This document shows, one piece after another, positions 1-27,060 of a stretch of DNA of 64,000 nt (positions are counted from its first letter, which is position 1; the number at the start of each line of letters is the position of its first letter). The stretch is from the IMG/VR virus record IMGVR_UViG_3300028186_000155. One strand, written 5' to 3'. Under the pieces are notes generated by a model. That model saw nothing but the letters and a program-made list of their open reading frames with translations. It did no database searches and had not been told where the DNA came from. The translations under genes and the position numbers were made by a program. The stretch is from a virus (Duplodnaviria > Caudoviricetes).

Positions 1-1
1 G

Positions 2-709
2 CCCGACCTGCAAAAATACGTGAAAAAGTGGTTGCCTGATTTGGCCAAGGGGCCGGGTTCGCTGCGTGGTGTGGCTGCTGCTGTGTGCGAAATCGTTTAC
101 CAGACTTCGGCACGTATCGGCTCGACCCGTGGCAATACCGCTGGTGAAACCACCTACGGCATTTCTACCCTGTTGCGTCGTCACATTCTGTTCAATGATC
201 AGCGTGCGATTTTCAAATATTTGGGCAAGAAAGCTGGCCAGCAAAAGCACGTGATCAAGTTCGAAGATCAGCGGACGCAAATGCTGCATAAAGCGATGGA
301 CGAATTCCTACATGATTTGAAGCCAAAAGATTATGTGTTTACGTTCCGTGGCAAACCGCTGTCAAACTCACAGGTGAACGGCTACCTGCGCGAACTCGGA
401 TTCCCTGAAGGGTTTAGTGTCCACAAATTCCGCAAGCTGCGCGGTACGGCCATGGCCAAAGTTATCATGGATAAATGCCCATTCGGTGCACGCGCCCGTG
501 AAGCAGACGTAAACGGTTGGCTGGAAAAAGAATGCCTGAAAATCGGTAAAGAACTCGGCCACCTCGCGGGTGAAAAGGTGACGGCCACCACGGCAATCGC
601 CAACTATATCGATCCATCGGTTTTCCTGCCGGTTTATGAGAAAACCAACACGAGGCCAAACAGCAAAATCCAGAAGGCTATCGACCTCGCGACAAAGAGC
701 GCTGAATAA
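2..709 (+). CDS. Type IB DNA topoisomerase, C-terminal catalytic core (5' end outside window)
   Basis: Poxvirus/bacterial TopIB motif order: RIG, YGISTL..H, F.YLGK, VNGYL, KFR, LGH, NYIDP (R-K-R-H-Y pentad); frame open from window edge. Confidence 0.85.
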   Translation, partial: PDLQKYVKKWLPDLAKGPGSLRGVAAAVCEIVYQTSARIGSTRGNTAGETTYGISTLLRRHILFNDQRAIFKYLGKKAGQQKHVIKFEDQRTQMLHKAMDEFLHDLKPKDYVFTFRGKPLSNSQVNGYLRELGFPEGFSVHKFRKLRGTAMAKVIMDKCPFGARAREADVNGWLEKECLKIGKELGHLAGEKVTATTAIANYIDPSVFLPVYEKTNTRPNSKIQKAIDLATKSAE

Positions 710-1071
710 TGGAAATGATCCTTTCGCTGGCCAGCACCGGGCTAGTGCTGAAGCACGGCAAAATGTCGGAAATGAAATTGGGCGATTCCACGATTACCTA
801 CCGTTACACCGATGAAGAATTTCGGCCTCAAGGTTCGTTCGTAGAAATCCAGAAGCTGCATACACCTGCCGACAAACGCGGATCAGGCAGTGCACGCAAA
901 CTGATGGAACATTTCCTGAACCTGACGGATCGTGCAGGCCTCGAAGTGATGCTCGAAGCAGAGCCTATGGATGCCCAAACCAAGGGCGCCAAACTGGTGA
1001 AGTTTTACAAATCGTTCGGGTTCAAATCCAAAGGGCGCGGCACCACCGCGATGATAAGAAAAGCCCAATAA
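709..1071 (+). CDS. GNAT-family acetyltransferase with MEMILSLA leader
   Basis: Acetyl-CoA motif A KRGSGSARKLM and motif B LVKFYKSFGF; TAATG coupling to upstream gene. Confidence 0.8.
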   Translation: MEMILSLASTGLVLKHGKMSEMKLGDSTITYRYTDEEFRPQGSFVEIQKLHTPADKRGSGSARKLMEHFLNLTDRAGLEVMLEAEPMDAQTKGAKLVKFYKSFGFKSKGRGTTAMIRKAQ

Positions 1072-1139
1072 AACACTACCCTCGTAGTAACATGGGAAGA
1101 GGAAGCCCCAAATGCACACCTAACGAAGAGAATTAAGAA

Positions 1140-1868
1140 ATGAAAGTAAATGGCGACCTTGTAATTGTTGAGGGCGGTGTGATCAAAAATCTCACGCTGC
1201 CATCCGACTCGGTTTTCCCTGCCAACGGGAACCGGGGTGAATTGTTCTCGGTGCACGGTCACACCGATGCAACGAATTACCCCGATGGCCTCTACCACCA
1301 CGACGGGACCGCATGGAGAAATATTGCACCTCTGGCAAAGGTGAAAGCGTTAATCGAGGCCGCTGGTTTGGGGGCTTCTGTAGTCACGCAGTGGCGCACT
1401 TTGTACAAAGTCGCAACAGGCATCAGCAGCCAAGCGGCGGGTACTTTTTGGTTCGTGCCTGATATCGGGCCAATTGCCGTAGCCAGTGCATTTTCGACCA
1501 CGGTAATGTCAAGCTTTTGGTATGACCCAGCGGATTATCCAGCTGGCACCAAATTCCGTTTGAATCTGATTTACAACCAGAACAGCGTGGCTTCTAACCC
1601 AATTGATTTTACGCTGGGGCTGCGCAAGGTTTTGCGGCCTGCTGGTAGCGGCGGCACCACTACGCAGCTGATTTATGCGGCAGATACTGCTGATGTTTCC
1701 AGCATCGTGGTAAATGGCCCAATCCCGATTAAAACGCAGGCACATTTGCTGTCTGCTGAATTCACGATGCCGACCGAAGCCGGTCAGTATTGCTTCGTGA
1801 TTACGTTGAGCGGCGCGAACGTTACGTCGGCAACTCACTACGACCTTAGCCTACAGGCTAAATACTAG
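1140..1868 (+). CDS. Putative virion fibre/decoration protein, paralogue 1
   Basis: Beta-rich; FPANG.RGELF and L..HDG.AW fibre-like motifs; full-length similarity to 1880..2596. Confidence 0.55.
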   Translation: MKVNGDLVIVEGGVIKNLTLPSDSVFPANGNRGELFSVHGHTDATNYPDGLYHHDGTAWRNIAPLAKVKALIEAAGLGASVVTQWRTLYKVATGISSQAAGTFWFVPDIGPIAVASAFSTTVMSSFWYDPADYPAGTKFRLNLIYNQNSVASNPIDFTLGLRKVLRPAGSGGTTTQLIYAADTADVSSIVVNGPIPIKTQAHLLSAEFTMPTEAGQYCFVITLSGANVTSATHYDLSLQAKY

Positions 1869-1879
1869 GAGGTGATCCG

Positions 1880-2596
1880 ATGGATGTTCACGGATTAGAT
1901 ATTGTTGAGGGTGGCGTTATTGAAAACCTCACGGTTGATTCCGGCGCCACACTTCCGGCTAATGGTGCACGCGGTGAATTGTTTGTTTCTGTAGGAAATG
2001 CCGATCAGGATTTGCACCCGGACGGCCTGCATTTTCACGACGGTGCGGCTTGGGATAACCTGCCTACTGTTGCGCAAGTCGAAAGCCTGATTAACGACGC
2101 GTTAGGGGCCGGTAGCGAAAAGTATTTCCAGACGGTATTCAACATTCGCACCCTTGTTGGTGCCAACGGCCTCGGTAATTACTGGGCAGTATCCGATAGC
2201 GCGGTGCTGGCAGTTAGTGGCGCGTTCAACGCAATCGTAATGTCAAGTTTTTGGTATGACCCGGCAGATTATCCGCTGGGTACAAAATTCCGACTTTCTG
2301 TTACGGCCAACCAAAGCAATACGGCGTCGTCCATGATTGTCGATGTTGGACTCTGTAAGGTTTTGCGTCCGTCAACTACGGGCGGGGCCACCACGCAAAT
2401 GATTTATACGCCGGATACGCCCGACGTGGCGGCTGTAGTGGTCCCTGCACTGCTGAGCAAGACACAAACGAACTATTACACCGAAGAATTTACGATGCCG
2501 TCCGAAGCCGGGCAGTATTGTTTCCACCTCAACCTGCGCAACACCAACGGCAACGCGGGCACGCATTACGAAATGCGCCTGCAAGCCAAATATTAA
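1880..2596 (+). CDS. Putative virion fibre/decoration protein, paralogue 2
   Basis: Shares VMSSFWYDPADYP.GTKFRL, EFTMP.EAGQYCF and LQAKY with the previous gene; SD GGAGGT. Confidence 0.55.
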   Translation: MDVHGLDIVEGGVIENLTVDSGATLPANGARGELFVSVGNADQDLHPDGLHFHDGAAWDNLPTVAQVESLINDALGAGSEKYFQTVFNIRTLVGANGLGNYWAVSDSAVLAVSGAFNAIVMSSFWYDPADYPLGTKFRLSVTANQSNTASSMIVDVGLCKVLRPSTTGGATTQMIYTPDTPDVAAVVVPALLSKTQTNYYTEEFTMPSEAGQYCFHLNLRNTNGNAGTHYEMRLQAKY

Positions 2597-2606
2597 GGAC
2601 TAATTC

Positions 2607-2768
2607 ATGGGCATGGCAGACGAATTTCCTTTGCACAATACACAGACCCCACATCGCCAATATGCAGGCCCTCCCGGTGAATCCGGTTTGAAACCGCAGT
2701 CTGCCCTGCCGTGGTACGTTCAACACAACATGCGCCAAGAGCGCCGCAAGCAAAAAGGAAAACACTGA
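2607..2768 (+). CDS. Small hypothetical protein (53 aa, not in ORF track)
   Basis: SD AAGGA; MGMADEFPLHNTQ...RRKQKGKH; stop overlaps next start (TGATG). Confidence 0.65.
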   Translation: MGMADEFPLHNTQTPHRQYAGPPGESGLKPQSALPWYVQHNMRQERRKQKGKH

Positions 2769-3154
2769 TGGAAATGCAACTTGCATTGGCCGCAGTAGCC
2801 ACCACGGATTTCGTTGATCGGCGCCGCAAGCAAAAGATTGGGGATCTGCGAGAACAGCTGAAGGCGCTCCGAGCCAAAATGGCGACCTTGAAAGAAAAGG
2901 GCGTACACGAAAGCAAAGAAAACGAACGCACGGCCCCGGTGCGCAAGATCCATACGCATGAGCGCCAGCACGCCTACCGCGCCACGCGCAATCCTGAATA
3001 TCAGGCGATGAAAGAACAGGAAATCCAGTTGAAAGCACAGTTGGATGCCCTGCGTGAAGATCACAAACAGCACCACGCCAAAAAGATGGCCGAAATTCAC
3101 GCTCGCCACAAAAAGCGTGTGCAAGATCGCAAAAACCGCAAGGACCAAGAATAA
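2768..3154 (+). CDS. Basic/His-rich coiled-coil protein with MEMQLALA leader
   Basis: Start moved to ATG 2768 (SD AGGA, TGATG coupling); K/R/H/E-rich helical sequence. Confidence 0.75.
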   Translation: MEMQLALAAVATTDFVDRRRKQKIGDLREQLKALRAKMATLKEKGVHESKENERTAPVRKIHTHERQHAYRATRNPEYQAMKEQEIQLKAQLDALREDHKQHHAKKMAEIHARHKKRVQDRKNRKDQE

Positions 3155-3331
3155 ATGATCCGTCCAATTCGCATGTCCGATTTGCACAAAATTTACGAAA
3201 ACGAAACGCCCGAAGAAAAAACCGCTCGCCTCAAGGCAAACAAAGAGCGCACCGAACGCATGCTGGCCAGCTGGAAAGAATTCAGCGAAAAGCATCCCGA
3301 AATCGCAAACAAAATGGTGTGTGCCGCCTAA
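3155..3331 (+). CDS. Small hypothetical protein (58 aa, not in ORF track)
   Basis: MIRPIRMSDLHKIYENE...MVCAA; fills the gap exactly, SD AAGGA, TAATG coupling downstream. Confidence 0.65.
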   Translation: MIRPIRMSDLHKIYENETPEEKTARLKANKERTERMLASWKEFSEKHPEIANKMVCAA

Positions 3332-3753
3332 TGAAAACTGAACTCGCTGTTGCATCCGTTCCAACCCAACCCGTTTACGGCGTAGGCACCGAAGTTTGGT
3401 TCCACCCGGCGATTCGCACCCTCAATTTCGGCGCGCTGCAAGACGTGGCGATCCGTGCAAAAGTCATGGGCGTAACCGTGCGCGAAACCCAAATCCAGTA
3501 CGAACTGGCGATGGATGTTTCCAGTTCGAAAATTGGTGATTATTACGAGGCCATTCCGCTGGCGCAAGTGGACTCTTTCTTCGTGCTGACCGAAGACCAT
3601 TTGAAGGAATTGAATGGGCTGGGCGAAGAGGATGTTTACAAGTCGTATGCGTCGGCTGTGCCGAGCACCAGCACCGTGCGCCGCTTCGTACAACGCTATC
3701 AGGAAATCCAAAACGATTTGCCAGCACTGCGCCGGGAACTCGGGCGTGTCTGA
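3331..3753 (+). CDS. Hypothetical protein with MKTELAVA leader, possible SH3-like barrel
   Basis: Start at ATG 3331 by TAATG coupling; YGVGTEVWF...AKVMGV...YEL pattern. Confidence 0.65.
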   Translation: MKTELAVASVPTQPVYGVGTEVWFHPAIRTLNFGALQDVAIRAKVMGVTVRETQIQYELAMDVSSSKIGDYYEAIPLAQVDSFFVLTEDHLKELNGLGEEDVYKSYASAVPSTSTVRRFVQRYQEIQNDLPALRRELGRV

Positions 3754-3997
3754 CGTTACGTGGATTGCCATAATCCTCAATCTGCCGATGCTTTGCCTAC
3801 TGGTCTACGGCCTGCGTGTTCTGCACAAAGAGCAAAGTTCGGCAATCCATTTCCATTCGGATTTCTGGCGTGACGTAACTGAGGCCGGGCGCCTCGTTAT
3901 GTTCCATCCGAATAAATTGGTTAAGGGGCCTGTCGGTCCCCAAGGCCCACAAGGCCCGCAGGGCGTCGTAGGCACACCGCTGCAAAGGAAAAAATAA
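3746..3997 (+). CDS. Small membrane protein with short collagen-like tail
   Basis: GTG 3746; N-terminal hydrophobic helix WIAIILNLPMLCLLVYGL; GPVGPQGPQGPQGVVGTP. Confidence 0.6.
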   Translation: MSDVTWIAIILNLPMLCLLVYGLRVLHKEQSSAIHFHSDFWRDVTEAGRLVMFHPNKLVKGPVGPQGPQGPQGVVGTPLQRKK

Positions 3998-4458
3998 TGG
4001 AAATGATGCTGGCTCTAGCGAGCGTGCAGGTGCCAAAGCTGCTGTATCATGGCACCAAAAAGAAGTTTACGAAATTCTCGGAATATCGCCCGGCCTTTTT
4101 CACCTCGGTCAAAGCGTATGCCGAAGGTTACGGCCACATCATCATGAAGGTGCATGTAGATATCAAACGTATTTTTGACACGCGCCACGACAAACGCGCC
4201 GTCGAGATTTACAATGATTATTTCCTGCCTTCGGGACTAGCTCGCCAAGGCGCCAAGCACATCAAACTGGGCGAACCAGTTTCAATGCACCACGCCGATG
4301 AATTGTGGTCCTATCTCGCTATACCTGAATATCCCGAACCGCATTACGACGGCATTTTGGTTTACGAGCAAATGGCAATTGCCGATCATGAACCCCTCAA
4401 AGGTGCGGAATTCGCGTTTGTTCCGCTGCACCCTGACCAAATTCATCTGGTGAAATAA
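3997..4458 (+). CDS. ADP-ribosyltransferase-like protein (YHGT type) with MEMMLALA leader
   Basis: LYHGT..KF..F, FFT....A..YG, YDGI, E..FVP..PDQI: pattern of the ART domain of phage/plasmid polyvalent proteins. Confidence 0.7.
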   Translation: MEMMLALASVQVPKLLYHGTKKKFTKFSEYRPAFFTSVKAYAEGYGHIIMKVHVDIKRIFDTRHDKRAVEIYNDYFLPSGLARQGAKHIKLGEPVSMHHADELWSYLAIPEYPEPHYDGILVYEQMAIADHEPLKGAEFAFVPLHPDQIHLVK

Positions 4459-5375
4459 TGGAAATGCAACTGGCCCTAGCGGGTTCCAGTGTGCTCTATC
4501 ACTTGATCCTGATGGAGCACGCAATCACCGCACTGAAAAACGATAAATTCAAACTGGCAGCCACCAATGAAGGCGTAGAGGCAGAATTCGGTGATGCTCA
4601 ATATTTCTTGAGCCTTGCCCGTTCTAAGCACTCGGATTACTTCAAGAAAGAAGCTGGCGAATCCCACATCATTTTCGTGCTCGACGGGCAGAAGATGAAC
4701 GCGAATTACCAGATTAAAGCCGTTGACTACTGGGCTGACCAAAAGCACATAACCAACGACGAAAAAGAAGATCGTTTGTTCGCCAACAAAATGTACATCC
4801 CGTGCATTCGCTACGTGAAAGAAATCCACTTCATGAAAGAGGGTGGGAAGTGGAAAGAAAACGATTCGTTGACGCTGGCGCTGCTGGCCAAGCGCAACAA
4901 GATTCAGCTGTTCCAGTATGACGACCTAACGGCCTTCATGAATCTGGATAAGCGCAAGACAATCAAGCTTGAAGTTTCCGACAAAAAGAAACGCAAGTTT
5001 GGCACCACCGAATGGAAGCCGCAGGCGGATCACGGACTTGAGGCGTGGTACGATGCATCGCAGATCGTCTTCCACGGTGACGAAAACCGCGCTGCCAAAT
5101 TCATGCAAAACGCCCGGCATAAAGAGCAAAGCAAGGCCTATCGTGATATTGCGCGCAGCATCGAAAAGCTTAACCGGTTTACCGATGTGGGGACGCAGGC
5201 GGTTAGCGATTTCAACCGGTTGGCACGTTATGCCAAGTTCCCTGTGGAAATGGATAACCTCGAAAAGATCAAACGGGTGAAACGTCGCCTGCGTGTTGAT
5301 ACCAAAGGCTTTTTGGATTATGTGCGTAAGCGCTGGATGACCAGCGAAGAGCGCGAACTGCACGGTTTGGAGTAA
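4458..5375 (+). CDS. Putative ADP-ribosyltransferase-fold protein with MEMQLALA leader
   Basis: LYH strand, FLSLARS, FVLDG, DEKEDR (ExE), YVKEIHF in ART order, then a helical C-terminal region. Confidence 0.55.
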   Translation: MEMQLALAGSSVLYHLILMEHAITALKNDKFKLAATNEGVEAEFGDAQYFLSLARSKHSDYFKKEAGESHIIFVLDGQKMNANYQIKAVDYWADQKHITNDEKEDRLFANKMYIPCIRYVKEIHFMKEGGKWKENDSLTLALLAKRNKIQLFQYDDLTAFMNLDKRKTIKLEVSDKKKRKFGTTEWKPQADHGLEAWYDASQIVFHGDENRAAKFMQNARHKEQSKAYRDIARSIEKLNRFTDVGTQAVSDFNRLARYAKFPVEMDNLEKIKRVKRRLRVDTKGFLDYVRKRWMTSEERELHGLE

Positions 5376-5380
5376 ACAAA

Positions 5381-7294
5381 ATGGAAATGATGCTGGCTCT
5401 GGCCGCCGTACCCATGAGCATTGCCCGGCCTCTGGTGAAAAACTGGAACCGTAACGGGCTGGGTGTGCAGGTAATCAAACGTTTCCTGCCAAAGAACAAA
5501 AAGCAGAAGAAAAACACCTATCGCCTCTATCTGCCGATCAAACCAACCAAACAAAAGATCAAAATTCCTGAGCCGATCCTGCATGCGCTGTCGTCCGTTG
5601 GTTACAGCGTTGACGATTACGTGACGGGCATTGCAGTTGATTCTACCGGCAAACGTCGGATGCGAATCGGCAAGCTGTTGAAAGATCAGCAGTTGCTCAA
5701 AGAATTCATGAATGATCCGCAACGCGCTGCACACAAAGACGAATTCACCTGCGTTATTTCCTGCCACCCGTATGACGTGCTGACCATGAGCACCGGGCGC
5801 CGCTGGGATATGACCAGTTGCATGCGCCTCGATCAACCGGGGAAATCGCGTGGCGGTGTAAACCAGCACATCGTGGCCAACGATGTAGCAGAAGGCACAT
5901 TGGTTGCCTATGCAATTTCACCAAACGATACCAATATCAACAAGCCCCATGCGCGCCTGCTGATCAAGCCTTTTGTTGGCCCGAACGGAAGCATTTTGTT
6001 CCGCGTTGAAACCGCTGTTTATGGCACGCCTATTCCCGGTTTCCAAGCAACGGTTAGCCGGTGGCTGCGCCAAGTAAACAAGGGTGCGGAAAGCGGTTTG
6101 TATCATTTGATCGAAGGCCTGTACGATGACGGTGTGGGCAAAGTGCACGCGCATGTCGAGTGGGAAACTGCGAAGGATAAAACGGCAACTCTCCGATCCT
6201 TTGTGAAAGGTGCCTATGCGCAAAACCAAGCGCTTTATGAATTGCTGCTGACCGATAAACGCTGGCTCGATTATTGGGTTGCGCACATCGAAGAAATTTA
6301 CGGATCAGCCGATGAAGCTGCGTTCGAAATGAGCATGTTCTATGGCAACGTTCGCGGCAAAGGTACGACCGGCAAAGCGCGCATTACCGCTAAGCAATTC
6401 GCGGCCCTGATCGACAAGCACCGTGACACTGTGCCAATCCTCGATCTGGTGGAAGTTCTGGCCCCGTTGGAATGGCGCCCCGAATTGCTGAAGGCTTCGA
6501 AATTCCTGCAAGAGGTTGTAGAAGAATCCTATTCGTTCGATCACTTCAACAACGAACCACAACCAGCGGCCTACGTGCTGAATCACGCGGCTTATTATGA
6601 CTCGCGCCTGCTGGGCCTGATCGAAGATAAACCTGAACCCGCCAAGGCCGTTAGCGTAATGCGTGGGCTGATGGCAGGCCTGTATAAACTCACGCCGGAA
6701 TGGTTGAATTCTACGCTGCCGGGTGCCGTGGAATTGCGTGAGCGCGTTGGTTTCCTGCTGGGCATGCTGTATCAGGCCCGTGACGTGAACATTCGCGGCG
6801 ACCGTGAATTGTTGATCAAACTGGCAAATAAACTGAAGGTCGATTATTACTGGACCGAGGACAAGCAGAAATTCCTCGACAAATTGCGCTGGAACAGAAT
6901 TTTCGACCGCAACACCACCATGAAAGCCGAAAGCATGCTGTGTGCACTCGACAATTCGTGGCCTGCACAAGATCCGTATTTGATCGTGAATGCCGACGAT
7001 TTCGTGCTCGAAAATCAGGAAGTCTTCAAACGTCTGACCGACCTCGGTAGCACCCTGATGCAAAGCGCCATGTGGACCGTATTGAATTCGGTTCTGCATC
7101 GTAAGAGCTTGAGTGCCGCAACGTGGCGCCAGCAATTCCCGTGGACTATCAAGTTCATCGAGGCTGTGGCCAAGGGCAATGCGGGTGAACGTGACGAAGG
7201 ACAGATGAAACGCGCGCAATATTTCGTGAACGATCTGAAAAAGAACGACGACGAAATGGACGAAATCATGCGGCAACTAGGCGAAGATTTTTAA
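5381..7294 (+). CDS. Large protein with conserved SCHPYD/SCMRL N-terminal domain, MEMMLALA leader
   Basis: N-terminal ~270 aa clearly homologous to 7307..10060. Confidence 0.8.
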   Translation: MEMMLALAAVPMSIARPLVKNWNRNGLGVQVIKRFLPKNKKQKKNTYRLYLPIKPTKQKIKIPEPILHALSSVGYSVDDYVTGIAVDSTGKRRMRIGKLLKDQQLLKEFMNDPQRAAHKDEFTCVISCHPYDVLTMSTGRRWDMTSCMRLDQPGKSRGGVNQHIVANDVAEGTLVAYAISPNDTNINKPHARLLIKPFVGPNGSILFRVETAVYGTPIPGFQATVSRWLRQVNKGAESGLYHLIEGLYDDGVGKVHAHVEWETAKDKTATLRSFVKGAYAQNQALYELLLTDKRWLDYWVAHIEEIYGSADEAAFEMSMFYGNVRGKGTTGKARITAKQFAALIDKHRDTVPILDLVEVLAPLEWRPELLKASKFLQEVVEESYSFDHFNNEPQPAAYVLNHAAYYDSRLLGLIEDKPEPAKAVSVMRGLMAGLYKLTPEWLNSTLPGAVELRERVGFLLGMLYQARDVNIRGDRELLIKLANKLKVDYYWTEDKQKFLDKLRWNRIFDRNTTMKAESMLCALDNSWPAQDPYLIVNADDFVLENQEVFKRLTDLGSTLMQSAMWTVLNSVLHRKSLSAATWRQQFPWTIKFIEAVAKGNAGERDEGQMKRAQYFVNDLKKNDDEMDEIMRQLGEDF

Positions 7295-7306
7295 GGAAAC
7301 CTTTCA

Positions 7307-10060
7307 ATGAAAACAGAAGTGGCATTGGCCGCAGTGTCCATGAAGACGGCGCTGAAATACCGCCGTAACTGGAACAAAGATGCACCCGCCGTACACCTGC
7401 TGCAATCCATGATGCCGAAAGGGCCGGGCCGCAAAGGCTACCGCCTGTATTTCGATATCGGTCAACAGCACCGCACCCACTTTACGATCCCGCCCGCTGT
7501 GCGTTCAGCACTGCAACGCGCCGGTTACGTGGCCACTGATTACCTCGCAAAGAAATGCGTAAAAATCAGTGACAAAGAGCAAAAGAACGTGACCAACATC
7601 GGCAAGGTGATTGCCAAAGATCCGCATGCGAAAGCAGCGTTCGATAATGACCCACAATTGCAGAATACCAAACAGGGTTCGTTGCAGGTGGTGATCAGCT
7701 GTCACCCATACGACATTATCGGCATGAGCACCGGTCGCGATTGGGATTTGACAAGCTGCATGCGACTGGCCGATGGTGAGCACCGTTTGAATCCCGGCAT
7801 TAACCAACACTACGTCAAAAACGATGTGGCTGAAGGTACGCTGGTGGCCTACGTGGTTTCCTCCGACGACCAGAATATTCAGCGGCCTAAAGCGCGCTGT
7901 TTGCTGAAGCCATTTATCAACGCGAAGGGTGACGTTTTGTATCGTCGCGAAACCCGCGTTTACGGCAACCCTGTGCCCGGTTTTGATTTGGTGATTGCAC
8001 GTTTCCTGCGCCAAGCCAATAAAGACCTGCCGTCCGACCGATTCCATATGGCAGAAACGCTGTATAACGACGGCATGGGCACCGAAATGTTCCATGAGCA
8101 AAGTGACGAAAATAACTATTCGGCACACGATGCACTGATGGACCCGGAACTGGCGCTGGATTATATTCAGCAGCGGGTGTTGGTTCTGAAAAACTCTGAT
8201 GATTCAGAAGCGAAAAAGCAGATTGCCCAACAGATTTATCAGTATCTCGATTCCAATGAAGCCGAGAAACTGCACGATACGCAGATTACAGAAATCGTTG
8301 ATGCCCTTAAAGGCGTCAAGGAATTTGTGGATGAACTCAACAACCAATCCACCATGGGCGCGGGCCTGCGTCCGCTGCCTGCACGTATCGGTCGTGCACT
8401 GGGCGCCTTCGATGGGTTTAAAGACCTCGACCAAAAAACCGTGAGCAAATTACCGCTGAGTTTGGTAAATTCGCTGAGCATCGGCGGCGGTGCCGTTATG
8501 GAGGAAATGCTGGGACGCTTGCAGGCAATGACCGAGCACAGCAACCTTGCAACAAACTCAAAAACCTTCCGCATGATTATGACCGGTGTGTATCCAGTAC
8601 CGCCAAAAGAAGTGCTGGAGAAATACCAGAAGGTTGGCCACGCGCTGTATTCGATGGCTTCGGCTGCACGTCACATGCTGTTGCTTGACGACGATTCGAT
8701 GCAAAAAGTTGCCTACGAAATTCTCGATATGGATCTGAGTTTCGAAGAGCCTTTGCGCACAGAAGAAATGGCCGATCTGGTTTATCAGGCCGGTGGCACG
8801 GGTCTGTCGATTTGCTACAACATCGATAACCTTGGCCGTCTCGATTCCAACACGTTGTGGGTTCCACCGGTCGGCGTTGTGGCCAACACCCTGACCCGTA
8901 AAGCTTTCCGCCTGCTGGATAAATACGATAAAGATGGCCGGGTGGAAATGTGGGTTGGTGAAATCAAGAAAAACATGGTTGAGCAGTTGCTGTACAGCCC
9001 TGAAAAACTGCGCGATTACAAAGATTTCCTGCCACGCCTGCGCGATTGGTTGAACGAGAACACCGAAGCGGTGCAGACTCTGGTTTCTCAATGGAACCCG
9101 AAACAGGTTAAAGCGTTGGCAGAATTCCACCTGCCATCCGTAATGCACCTGAACGATAACGGCATCATTTTCGGTTCGCAAACTGCCGACACTATCAACG
9201 GTATTTTGCCGTCGCTGGTTGCGTGGGATGGCGAGCCGCTGATTCCAGAATCGCAGGATATGGTCGAGATTTGCCAGCTGATGGTTGCAGCCGGTAATCT
9301 GCTGGAAAAACCGCTGCATTTGGAAAAGAAATTCGATCCAGAAACGTTCGAAGAGCAAGACGTGGTGGACGTTGCCGAGAACTTCCAAACCGGTATGGGC
9401 CGCCGTCGCCACCAGCGCACCACCACGTTTGGCGCCCTGCTGAACAAAATCGAAATCAACGGCGAAAAACCTGATATCACGTGGCGCATGGAACTGGTTG
9501 AGCACAACGGTGCCGATGGCATTGGTTGGGTTCCACCGGAAAAACTGCCGCAACTGATCCGCAAATTGCTGGCGATGGTTGCCAACATGGATTCGTTGGA
9601 TACCGCGATTCTGGCCCTGACCCGTTTGGTTCACAATACCAATATGATTCACCCTGTGGACGTACAGGAAGAATTGAATAATCGGATGGACATGGGCTTT
9701 ATCCAATATCCAGACGAAGACGAAATGGATGCAGCGGCCTACGAAGAGGCATTGGAAGCCTACGAAGAAAACCGCCAGCGCATCGAAGACGAACTGACGG
9801 CACAGCGCGAAAAAACTCTGGACCTCAACGAACAATTGCTGCTGGTTCTGGAAAAGGTTGCCGACTTTGTTGGCATGGATGATTTCGATGAAAGTCTGGA
9901 TGATGACGAAGCTGAAGCTATGCCATTCGACGTGAAAACTCCGAACATTCGCGAAAATCAATGGGCGGATCAAGCCGATGAAGTCCACGGTCTGCGCCGT
10001 GAGATTTACGACGCGCAACAAACGCGCCCGGATGAATTGCAGGAAATGCGGGACGAATAA
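7307..10060 (+). CDS. Large paralogue with SCHPYD/SCMRL domain and acidic C-terminus, MKTEVALA leader
   Basis: 917-aa ORF, SD AAGGA; shares VISCHPYD..MSTGR.WD.TSCMRL and NDVAEGTLVAY. Confidence 0.8.
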   Translation: MKTEVALAAVSMKTALKYRRNWNKDAPAVHLLQSMMPKGPGRKGYRLYFDIGQQHRTHFTIPPAVRSALQRAGYVATDYLAKKCVKISDKEQKNVTNIGKVIAKDPHAKAAFDNDPQLQNTKQGSLQVVISCHPYDIIGMSTGRDWDLTSCMRLADGEHRLNPGINQHYVKNDVAEGTLVAYVVSSDDQNIQRPKARCLLKPFINAKGDVLYRRETRVYGNPVPGFDLVIARFLRQANKDLPSDRFHMAETLYNDGMGTEMFHEQSDENNYSAHDALMDPELALDYIQQRVLVLKNSDDSEAKKQIAQQIYQYLDSNEAEKLHDTQITEIVDALKGVKEFVDELNNQSTMGAGLRPLPARIGRALGAFDGFKDLDQKTVSKLPLSLVNSLSIGGGAVMEEMLGRLQAMTEHSNLATNSKTFRMIMTGVYPVPPKEVLEKYQKVGHALYSMASAARHMLLLDDDSMQKVAYEILDMDLSFEEPLRTEEMADLVYQAGGTGLSICYNIDNLGRLDSNTLWVPPVGVVANTLTRKAFRLLDKYDKDGRVEMWVGEIKKNMVEQLLYSPEKLRDYKDFLPRLRDWLNENTEAVQTLVSQWNPKQVKALAEFHLPSVMHLNDNGIIFGSQTADTINGILPSLVAWDGEPLIPESQDMVEICQLMVAAGNLLEKPLHLEKKFDPETFEEQDVVDVAENFQTGMGRRRHQRTTTFGALLNKIEINGEKPDITWRMELVEHNGADGIGWVPPEKLPQLIRKLLAMVANMDSLDTAILALTRLVHNTNMIHPVDVQEELNNRMDMGFIQYPDEDEMDAAAYEEALEAYEENRQRIEDELTAQREKTLDLNEQLLLVLEKVADFVGMDDFDESLDDDEAEAMPFDVKTPNIRENQWADQADEVHGLRREIYDAQQTRPDELQEMRDE

Positions 10061-10065
10061 AACGG

Positions 10066-10073
10066 TAATTTGA
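10066..10073 (+). promoter_or_regulatory. Candidate late-promoter motif variant (TAATTTGA)
   Basis: Intergenic, one mismatch to TAATTTAA, followed by hairpin CCGGGAC/GTCCCGG. Confidence 0.4.
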
Positions 10074-10125
10074 TTGTATATGCCGGGACCGCGTGTCCCG
10101 GTTTCAATCATGCAGAGGATTCGAA

Positions 10126-10548
10126 ATGGAAGTTTGGATAGCACTCGCTGCCGAAGATATTAGCGCCCGGATTTCCGACGGTGTGCGGCAGATTATGAAA
10201 CGCAGCTACACTTCGCTTTTCGCCAACGTTTTCACGCAAGTTTACGATATCGAAGATCGCAAGAAATCCGAAATCAAACAGGTGCGTGAAATGGATAAAG
10301 ACCTGTCGCCGGTTCTGGTGACGGTTGAAGACCAGAAGCACCAGAAACTGACTTTCGTTTTTGCTGTGCCGAACATTGGCAACGTGCTGCATATTCCGAA
10401 CCCGGCCCAAGGTTACATTTTGCACGATAACAAAGTGCAGGAATTCGATTTGGAATCGCGGGTAATCAAGGTGCGCGGTATCGACTACGCGATTGCAGCA
10501 GCAGTCGCCCGGCGAGCGCCGAACTTCCTCGATTTTGGTGCACGTTAA
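10126..10548 (+). CDS. Hypothetical protein with MEVWIALA leader
   Basis: Start moved to ATG 10126 after SD GAGGA. Confidence 0.7.
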   Translation: MEVWIALAAEDISARISDGVRQIMKRSYTSLFANVFTQVYDIEDRKKSEIKQVREMDKDLSPVLVTVEDQKHQKLTFVFAVPNIGNVLHIPNPAQGYILHDNKVQEFDLESRVIKVRGIDYAIAAAVARRAPNFLDFGAR

Positions 10549-10766
10549 TGGAAGTGCTGATTTCATTGGCAAAGGCGGGTAGTGCCGAACGGTGGGACGA
10601 AATCCCTGAGACGCGTTTTGATAACGCAAAGGAAGGGCGACCACTGAAAGCCACCGGAAAGAAAAAGCGTAGAAAAATCCGTCTGAAAAGCGGATTGATC
10701 GACACGCCAATCGAAGGGGCCGAGACGCACTATCTCGACATTCAGGATACGGTTCGTTGTCCGTGA
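10548..10766 (+). CDS. Small basic protein with MEVLISLA leader
   Basis: TAATG coupling; KKKRRKIRLK patch. Confidence 0.7.
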   Translation: MEVLISLAKAGSAERWDEIPETRFDNAKEGRPLKATGKKKRRKIRLKSGLIDTPIEGAETHYLDIQDTVRCP

Positions 10767-10773
10767 GGAAACC

Positions 10774-11037
10774 ATGCCGAAATTAACAATTAAAGGGATT
10801 GCTAAGCAACCCGAAAATGTCGAAAACCCACAACACGAAGGCACGCGCCTGACGAAGTGGGAAGACGACGACAAAATGATCAAGAAAATGCCACGCTCGA
10901 AAAAGAAAACCTTGCTGAAGGATCGCACGCGTTCCGGGGCACAGGGAGCAATGGCATTCCCTCATGATTACATTGAAAAAATGCACGTGTCTAAATCGAA
11001 TTGGTTGGGCCGTCGTGAGCGGGGACGCGACCGATGA
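10774..11037 (+). CDS. Small basic protein
   Basis: SD GAGGA; K/R-rich; ATGA overlap with next gene. Confidence 0.7.
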   Translation: MPKLTIKGIAKQPENVENPQHEGTRLTKWEDDDKMIKKMPRSKKKTLLKDRTRSGAQGAMAFPHDYIEKMHVSKSNWLGRRERGRDR

Positions 11038-19920: not shown

Positions 19921-19928
19921 TAATTTAA
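19921..19928 (+). promoter_or_regulatory. Candidate late promoter TAATTTAA
   Basis: In the 84-nt divergent gap directly ahead of the baseplate operon. Confidence 0.55.
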
Positions 19929-26820: not shown

Positions 26821-27060
26821 ATGACCAAAATCATTAATCCGCTGGATATTCTGCGCCAGCAAAAAGAAGCCAAAGCCCAGCAATTGGCTGTTGCCTCGGC
26901 TACCAATGAAAACGCGGAAGTGGCCACGGCCTCTGCACTGTCCAACGTTGACCCGTCCATGTGCCCAAAATGCGGTCGTAAAATGGGATTCGGTTTGCTG
27001 TTTGATCGGACACAGGTTTACTACTGCATTGAAGACCGCGTAACTCAGCCGATGGAATAA
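26821..27060 (+). CDS. Small protein with Zn-ribbon-like C-terminus
   Basis: CPKC...YYC..D; Ala-rich linker with LAVAS and EVATAS. Confidence 0.7.
   Translation: MTKIINPLDILRQQKEAKAQQLAVASATNENAEVATASALSNVDPSMCPKCGRKMGFGLLFDRTQVYYCIEDRVTQPME

Follow-up and report, generated by a model that had tools for sequence, protein, structure and literature searches.

We analysed a 64-kb stretch of phage DNA (the window), part of a 195-kb virus record (G000) that was found in soil metagenomes and judged 63% complete. Near its start lies a block of genes in which nine proteins begin with a common eight-residue tag (Table 1), whose core is hydrophobic-[AS]-[LVTI]-A followed by a small residue. An earlier sequence-only reading had interpreted this tag as a capsid-targeting and cleavage code on a co-injected effector set, and the tag is the subject of the present analysis. 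Its gene order and its protein matches make the phage a jumbo myophage of the Pseudomonas type, like Lu11 and HRDY3; the wider group around these two takes in PaBG, the Erwinia Y3/Yoloswag phages and the Dickeya JA phages (see also PMC7412058). Terminase, portal, thymidylate kinase and topoisomerase IB genes lie upstream of the tagged block. The G000 fragment lacks capsid, scaffold and protease genes. Because this head module is missing from the 63%-complete record, the evidence on scaffold, capsid and protease is drawn from relatives. The complete relatives used are G001 (the closest, with a cargo domain 82% identical), HRDY3, Lu11, PaBG, Yoloswag, G002 and G003.

A shared protein start on unrelated genes

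The nine N-termini proposed in the sequence-only reading are correct in coordinates, residues and codons. Across the 195-kb record, 10 of 10,696 possible starts fit the strict tag pattern: the nine in the window and one that lies 1.4 kb before it. They share a strand and fall within a single 12-kb block. The core at positions 5–8 is present in nine called genes of G000 against 0.17 expected (P ~3e-13, scored on the same window genes to which the core pattern was fitted). An out-of-sample scan of N-termini in the complete relatives finds the core in 10 genes of G001, 10 of Lu11 and 8 of HRDY3, against 0.3–0.4 expected, and the T4-like control phage RsoM2USA has 0 matches. Genes were called with a home-made caller and some starts are uncertain. 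Three of the nine starts had been hidden in the gene calls, and their correction holds: 2768 and 3331 overlap the upstream stop, 10126 is preceded by a GAGGA site, and the orthologues of genes 3331 and 10126 begin at the same residue. Independent assemblies, one of which may be the window's own source, have zero sequence differences across the tagged stretch; metatranscriptome contigs that span it cannot show expression.

The count of nine stands for the window, and the total rises to at least 12 with three tagged genes just outside it: topoisomerase IB, the gene preceding it and a minus-strand NUDIX gene. The topoisomerase IB gene starts 976 nucleotides (nt) before the window, bears a shorter form of the tag and is tagged in 7 of the 7 genomes that encode it, suggesting that the enzyme is packaged in the virion. 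Poxviruses package a topoisomerase in their virions. The NUDIX gene stands alone at the edge of an early-gene block, just past the window. Seven relatives, PaBG not among them, carry the tag on their orthologue of this gene; a second NUDIX paralogue mostly lacks it, and the putative late-promoter box described below goes with the tagged one. Tags come and go on orthologues: gene 3331 is tagged and its Lu11 orthologue is not, and Lu11 gp219 is tagged and its window orthologue at 11034 is not. Tagged Lu11 proteins also include gp203–206, 208, 210–216, 68, 74 and 78.

Once the tag is removed, 92 tagged proteins from nine genomes or loci fall into 22 unrelated families. A shared start could be a DNA or RNA feature, such as a translation ramp or a recombination landing pad, or the trace of gene duplication, and the clustering of the genes, their frequent stop-start coupling and a cassette order that varies between relatives would fit such an origin. 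This explanation is largely refuted by the codons, whose identity between tags is at chance (0.35–0.42 against 0.33–0.37), and it is further opposed by the unrelated gene bodies and by tagged genes that sit far from the cluster; we regard it as hardly credible. For the window tags alone the codon identity is 0.35 against 0.37 expected from codon usage. Since the tag codons match at chance level, it is the peptide and not the DNA that is conserved, as had been argued from synonymous variation.

All nine window tags end in Ala at position 8, as first noticed; that position is not fixed among homologues. In 120 homologues of the two large paralogues of the block (637 and 917 residues) the leader is ~5–17 residues long, only its C-terminal end is constant, and it always ends hydrophobic-[ASG]-[LVTI]-[AS] just before the domain. 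The leader is therefore anchored at that end, as a cleavage site would be.

Table 1. Tagged genes and associated elements at the start of the window and just beyond its end (aa, amino acids; pI, isoelectric point; ART, ADP-ribosyltransferase)
Feature	Position	Strand	Tag (position)	Evidence or remark
Topoisomerase IB, 3' part of 561-aa gene	1–709	+		Pfam PF01028, E 1.5e-13; complete gene in G000
GNAT-like protein, 120 aa	709–1071	+	MEMILSLA (709–732)	Pfam GNAT below cut-off, best E 1.5e-4
Two untagged paralogues, 242 and 238 aa, 51% identical	1140–2596	+		Inserted in cluster; no Pfam match
Basic coiled protein, 128 aa, pI 10.1	2768–3154	+	MEMQLALA (2768–2791)	No homologue among relatives compared
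140-aa protein	3331–3753	+	MKTELAVA (3331–3354)	Lu11 orthologue untagged
ART-like protein, 153 aa	3997–4458	+	MEMMLALA (3997–4020)	Pfam ART-PolyVal, E 2.2e-6, 28.9 bits, cut-off 31.2
305-aa protein, possible ART fold	4458–5375	+	MEMQLALA (4458–4481)	His...Ser...E-x-E-D-R pattern conserved
637-aa protein, 260-aa conserved N-domain	5381–7294	+	MEMMLALA (5381–5404)	Homologues are virion proteins
917-aa paralogue of 637-aa protein	7307–10060	+	MKTEVALA (7307–7330)	44% identity over 258 aa
TAATTT[AG] box, probable late promoter element	10066–10072	+		54 nt upstream of tagged gene 10126
140-aa protein	10126–10548	+	MEVWIALA (10126–10149)	Tag pattern
Basic protein, 72 aa	10548–10766	+	MEVLISLA (10548–10571)	Tag pattern
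NUDIX gene with own late box	G000 ~63833–64354, ~1 kb past window end	minus strand of window	tagged	Tag and box

The tag motif in head proteins

We scanned whole proteomes for internal copies of the motif with a pattern taken from the nine window tags only, excluding the first 20 residues of each protein. The top-ranked protein in G001, HRDY3 and Lu11 is the acidic phrog_20988, with 6, 7 (in two open reading frames, ORFs) and 7 copies, respectively, against ~0.3 in shuffled sequences. Annotated as an 'ATPase', it lacks a Walker A motif, is encoded two genes upstream of the major capsid gene and consists of 19–29% Asp plus Glu; its position and make-up suggest that it is the scaffold. The motif also occurs at residues ~66–73 of the capsid proteins of relatives, and the shorter capsid chain of phage G aligns to the Lu11 capsid protein from residue 73 on. 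The PaBG capsid protein loses ~20% on maturation (PMC7412058); its motif is at residue 78, and a predicted cut there would take away 20.6% of the mass. The portal carries a single copy at residue 43–48 (residue 44 in the G000 portal), and the head maturation protease of G001 and HRDY3 one copy at residue 21. A check of scaffold, capsid and portal proteins that had been proposed along with the tag has found the motif in the scaffold-like, capsid and portal proteins, mostly in relatives.

Sorting to another part of the particle, be it the tail lumen, the portal channel or the head surface, would have a precedent in PVC contractile systems, which load tube cargo via N-terminal signals (PMC11495950). 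Enrichment of the motif is seen for the scaffold-like protein, capsid protein and portal and not for sheath or tube, and proteins of 637–917 aa are large for a tube; we consider such a destination very unlikely.

Several further proteins touch on this pattern. The HRDY3 scaffold-like gene (226749–228724, L033) is divided into its two ORFs where G001 has an in-frame Met followed by a motif-like stretch; the split may be an internal start or a sequencing error. A 283-aa protein (phrog_17573; G001 L116:11344–12195, Lu11 76589–77449) has three internal motifs and a late box, ranks second after the scaffold-like protein and is a candidate core protein. A 79-aa zinc-ribbon-like protein of the window (26821–27060, plus strand), annotated 'DNA ligase' (phrog_13972), has two internal motifs and a late box and is probably another protease substrate. 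In RSL1 (L150:5458–9579) the scaffold-like, capsid and neighbouring proteins are rich in V-x-A followed by A/S stretches, a possible further variant of the code.

Leader type and the head protease

The domain family of the 637-aa protein has 2,858 representatives, of which 116 were sampled and 114 are in register; rows without a clear register were omitted. Immediately ahead of the domain, 52 of them have Glu, 41 Ser and 17 Ala (together 110/114), and the next residue is usually Ala. In RsoM2USA ORF132 and Atu_ph07 gp394, T4-type leaders end in L-x-E or I-E at the same point of the cargo domain. Both of these phages, which are of the Glu type, have a gp21-type protease (Peptidase_S77, PF03420) above cut-off. 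No PF03420 match is found in the complete genomes of Lu11, Yoloswag and PaBG; none was found in G000, a fragment for which that search also gave no control match. Lu11 (as gp72), Yoloswag and PaBG instead encode a protease of phrog_18299 (E 5.8e-94), in which H148, S202 and G204, the His and Ser-x-Gly of a clan SH protease, are invariant across 10 sequences. By these matches, Glu leaders go with a gp21-type protease and Ala or Ser leaders with a different protease family. Neighbouring genes in the contigs sampled have the leader type of the query, and one Glu-type contig has T4-like neck and sheath genes.

The last residue is Ala in 88–100% of tags and 71–100% of scaffold sites in G001, HRDY3, Lu11 and PaBG, and in 0–8% of tags and 27–40% of scaffold sites in Yoloswag, G002 and G003. 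Within the Lu11-to-Yoloswag group, the change from Ala to Ser thus affects tags and scaffold sites alike. Composition alone fails to explain the switch because Yoloswag is not Ser-rich overall. A quick tree of the cargo domain calls for 10 changes of leader type where 2 would be the minimum; many of its forks are open and the well-supported branches force few changes, so that the figure of 10 leader swaps is weakly supported.

A predicted structure of the phrog_18299 protease matches the varicella-zoster virus (VZV) protease at Z 4.7 (root-mean-square deviation, rmsd, 3.9; 112 residues aligned) and T4 gp21 at Z 4.2 (rmsd 5.1; 120 aligned). Both score below matches to MCE domains, and the fold match to herpesvirus proteases is weak because the protease model is poor. 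A sequence search of the PDB with the protease gave no real match.

The Ala-type core also invites a reading by the host. Signal peptidase I follows an A-x-A rule and the ssrA tag has a hydrophobic end, and the core resembles both, so the tag could be a leader for a signal peptidase-like enzyme or for docking to the membrane, or else mark the N-terminus for degradation. The tag has only eight residues, is often acidic at position 2, and lacks a basic n-region, an h-region of membrane length and a lipobox Cys; leaders ending in Glu or Ser on the same cargo track the phage protease and not the host, and the internal copies cluster in head proteins. A host-read signal is accordingly most unlikely, and we reject its signal peptide, lipoprotein and degron forms in view of the anatomy of the tag and its match to the type of phage protease.

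Virion presence of homologues and probable late expression

Homologues of the 637-aa protein are found in virions. RsoM2USA ORF132, of the Glu type, is one of ten main virion bands (PMC8504454), and another of these bands, ORF89, has a T4-type leader. For the Glu-type homologue Atu_ph07 gp394, virion proteomics recovered 18 unique peptides (PMC6102473 Table S5). The 14 virion bands of PaBG include gp83, a basic protein whose start is tag-like. These homologues suggest that the cargo is probably in the particle. The PaBG virion helicase gp202 also has a tag-like start; its orthologues in Lu11, HRDY3 and G001 lack one and it is not counted here.

A TAATTT[AG] box lies upstream of sheath, baseplate and other tail genes in G000, G001 and Lu11. 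The same box lies upstream of the operon entering the cluster, of gene 10126 and of the tagged NUDIX gene. In the window, boxes before tail genes are at 19921, 26759, 34306, 44209, 52764 and 57200 (plus strand). The box is unlike the CTGTAAATA boxes annotated as middle/late promoters in Lu11.

Interpretation of the tag

The comparative evidence supports the capsid-targeting and cleavage reading well: the motif recurs in scaffold-like, capsid, portal and protease proteins, the leaders stand in exact register with T4-type leaders, homologues are virion proteins and the genes have a late-promoter context. It also supports the cut after residue 8. The low confidence of the first seven residues in the model of the 637-aa protein, the turnover of tags on orthologues and the late box of the tagged NUDIX paralogue speak for this reading too. 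Judged from these comparisons, the end of the tag is very probably a prohead protease site, the cargo is with good confidence placed in the head, and the tag is likely to be a capsid-targeting propeptide of the T4 kind whose cleavage code, Ala/Ser, is new. Tagged proteins would be made late, from the late promoters implied by the box, and the tag, by analogy with T4, would bring them into the prohead core. The protease would cut after hydrophobic-[AS]-[LVTI]-A, removing the tag; from the placement of the motif, cuts at the same site would also break the scaffold-like protein into pieces and shorten the capsid protein and the portal. Mature cargo would then start at residue 9, stay in the head and probably be delivered with the DNA.

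The tag could also be no more than a protease site, an inhibitory or solubility propeptide on proteins that are loaded through their folded parts or by binding DNA. The leader varies in length and sequence ahead of its last four residues, many of the cargo proteins are basic, and the long propeptides of SPN3US have no shown targeting role, all of which would suit this explanation. Within a lineage, however, residues 2–5 are alike across the 22 unrelated families, beyond the needs of a four-residue site, and in the T4 capsid-targeting sequence (CTS) the front part serves targeting and the back part processing (PMC9026906). We therefore think a site without targeting function improbable. We lean towards a tag that is sufficient for loading, and modestly favour injection of the cargo.

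Several points weigh against a capsid-targeting propeptide with an Ala/Ser code. Two of the three Ser-type genomes are Ser-rich overall, and the co-variation of tags and scaffold sites, with a rank correlation of 0.67 (p 0.10) over 7 related genomes, may go back to only one or two events in evolution. The protease model has a predicted local distance difference test score (pLDDT) of 51, and its matches to herpesvirus protease and gp21 are only at Z 3.6–4.7. Virion data come only from Glu-type homologues in other lineages and from one or two PaBG proteins, and the scaffold role of phrog_20988 is inferred. Finally, ~80% of SPN3US head proteins are uncleaved (PMC10052503), so heads can load cargo without such tags.

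As to what the cargo does, T4 IPI and Alt make a part in anti-defence or host takeover plausible by analogy. The topoisomerase and the basic proteins are just as likely to handle DNA as it enters, and a cargo mainly for anti-defence or takeover seems rather doubtful. The mix would be variable: small basic proteins and members of a large unnamed family would accompany topoisomerase IB and the NUDIX, GNAT and ART-like enzymes. The term 'effector set' overstates the case because the set also includes DNA-handling and small basic proteins.

Comparison with known systems

In T4, gp21 cuts the scaffold to pieces, trims the shell and internal proteins and has an N-terminal site of its own (PMC9026906). 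Like the CTS of T4 (IPI-III and the Alt propeptide; PMC9026906), the tag would be a short propeptide (8 aa on the nine window genes, 10–19 aa in T4) at the N-terminus of cargo that is unrelated and varies; its end motif matches putative sites in scaffold, capsid and protease, and the predicted cargo includes ART-like and basic proteins. The differences are that tags end in [AS]-x-A (S-x-S in the Yoloswag group) and not in L/I-x-E, and that at least 12 genes are tagged here and 16–19 in complete relatives, against about four in T4. The capsid and scaffold-like proteins are of the Lu11/PaBG/RSL1 type, and Lu11, PaBG and Yoloswag are without a PF03420 protease. We class the tag as an analogue or divergent variant of the T4 CTS and not as a member, because it has neither the Glu site nor an associated gp21-type protease.

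The propeptides of phiKZ and SPN3US (PMC10052503, PMC9026906) are likewise trimmed by a prohead protease at a short motif with a small P3 residue and often Ser after the cut. They differ in having S/A-x-E and A-x-E sites cut after Glu, in being mostly 111–254 residues long and in having no shared short tag described. The prohead proteases reviewed (T4, phiKZ, 201phi2-1, SPN3US) all cut after Glu. The P1 DarB signal (PMC9024508) is also an N-terminal peptide that loads a protein into a non-T4 head; it requires more than 9 and up to 30 residues, there is no Dar consensus, and it is not known as a shared cleavable tag. A substrate of the herpesvirus protease is given in PMC12632753. Herpesvirus assemblin belongs by annotation to the same protease clan as the relatives' protease, with the weak fold match described above, and differs in cutting its own scaffold fusion and in having no N-terminal cargo tags. 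Herpesvirus proteases cut Ala-Ser after a hydrophobic residue, like the A-S and A-A junctions here.

No description of the tag was found in the literature searched, with most subscription papers outside that search, and it is not mentioned in the accessible parts of the jumbo phage survey of Iyer et al. and of the PaBG paper (PMC7412058). Short capsid-targeting signals have been proven only in T4 and P1. An Ala/Ser tag would extend capsid targeting to the Lu11/PaBG/Erwinia Y3/Dickeya JA jumbo phages and define the specificity of their uncharacterised head protease. With it, packaged proteins could be recognised by sequence among the hundreds of hypothetical genes, and the identity of the injected proteins becomes directly testable. 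It suggests that a topoisomerase IB and a NUDIX enzyme are packaged, and it could serve as a small tag with which to load proteins into the head of a Pseudomonas phage. More tentatively, at slightly less than an even chance, leaders may form a general, swappable address system across unrelated jumbo lineages. A cargo gene that passes from one lineage to another would have its leader rewritten to the code of the prohead protease there, with Glu for T4-like phages, Ala for Lu11-like and Ser for Yoloswag-like ones, and the eight-residue tag alone would load 12–20 proteins of Lu11/PaBG/Y3 phages, including topoisomerase IB and a NUDIX hydrolase, for injection ahead of gene expression. If this is true, the tag would read out the injected proteome from sequence alone.

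Individual cargo proteins and neighbouring genes

Functional assignments of the cargo are thin: topoisomerase IB and NUDIX are clear, and the GNAT-like and 153-aa ART-like proteins remain below Pfam cut-offs. Tagged orthologues of the 120-aa GNAT-like protein occur in HRDY3 and Lu11, and another tagged family, in G001, exceeds the ART-PolyVal cut-off. Two ART-like enzymes had been proposed. The 153-aa protein keeps that label through its sub-threshold match, and for the 305-aa protein there is only the motif and a weak atlas lead, pointing to a DarT/PARP cluster at 0.89; it has no Pfam match, and homology to Atu_ph07 gp407 is not detectable. An atlas search with the 140-aa protein of gene 3331 gave no usable lead.

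The tagged 637-aa protein is encoded on a 314-kb contig as well. Its model has a mean pLDDT of 86, with residues 1–7 of low confidence. A fold search with its N-domain gave a best Z of 5.6 (HAT1, rmsd 4.1, 109 residues aligned), and the top 50 matches are mostly GNATs, none of them prominent. Foldseek gave no match at E 0.001, and PcfJ-like viral matches appear only at E ~0.1. The predicted topology is GNAT-like, a weak assignment.

The starts of the two untagged paralogues inserted in the cluster (1140–1868 and 1880–2596) resemble that of the tail-region gene 55046, and one of the two has an internal motif at residue 112. After the cluster, between 10774 and 12373 on the plus strand, lie genes for untagged, very basic proteins of 87, 183 and 153 aa; the Lu11 orthologue of the 183-aa protein is tagged.

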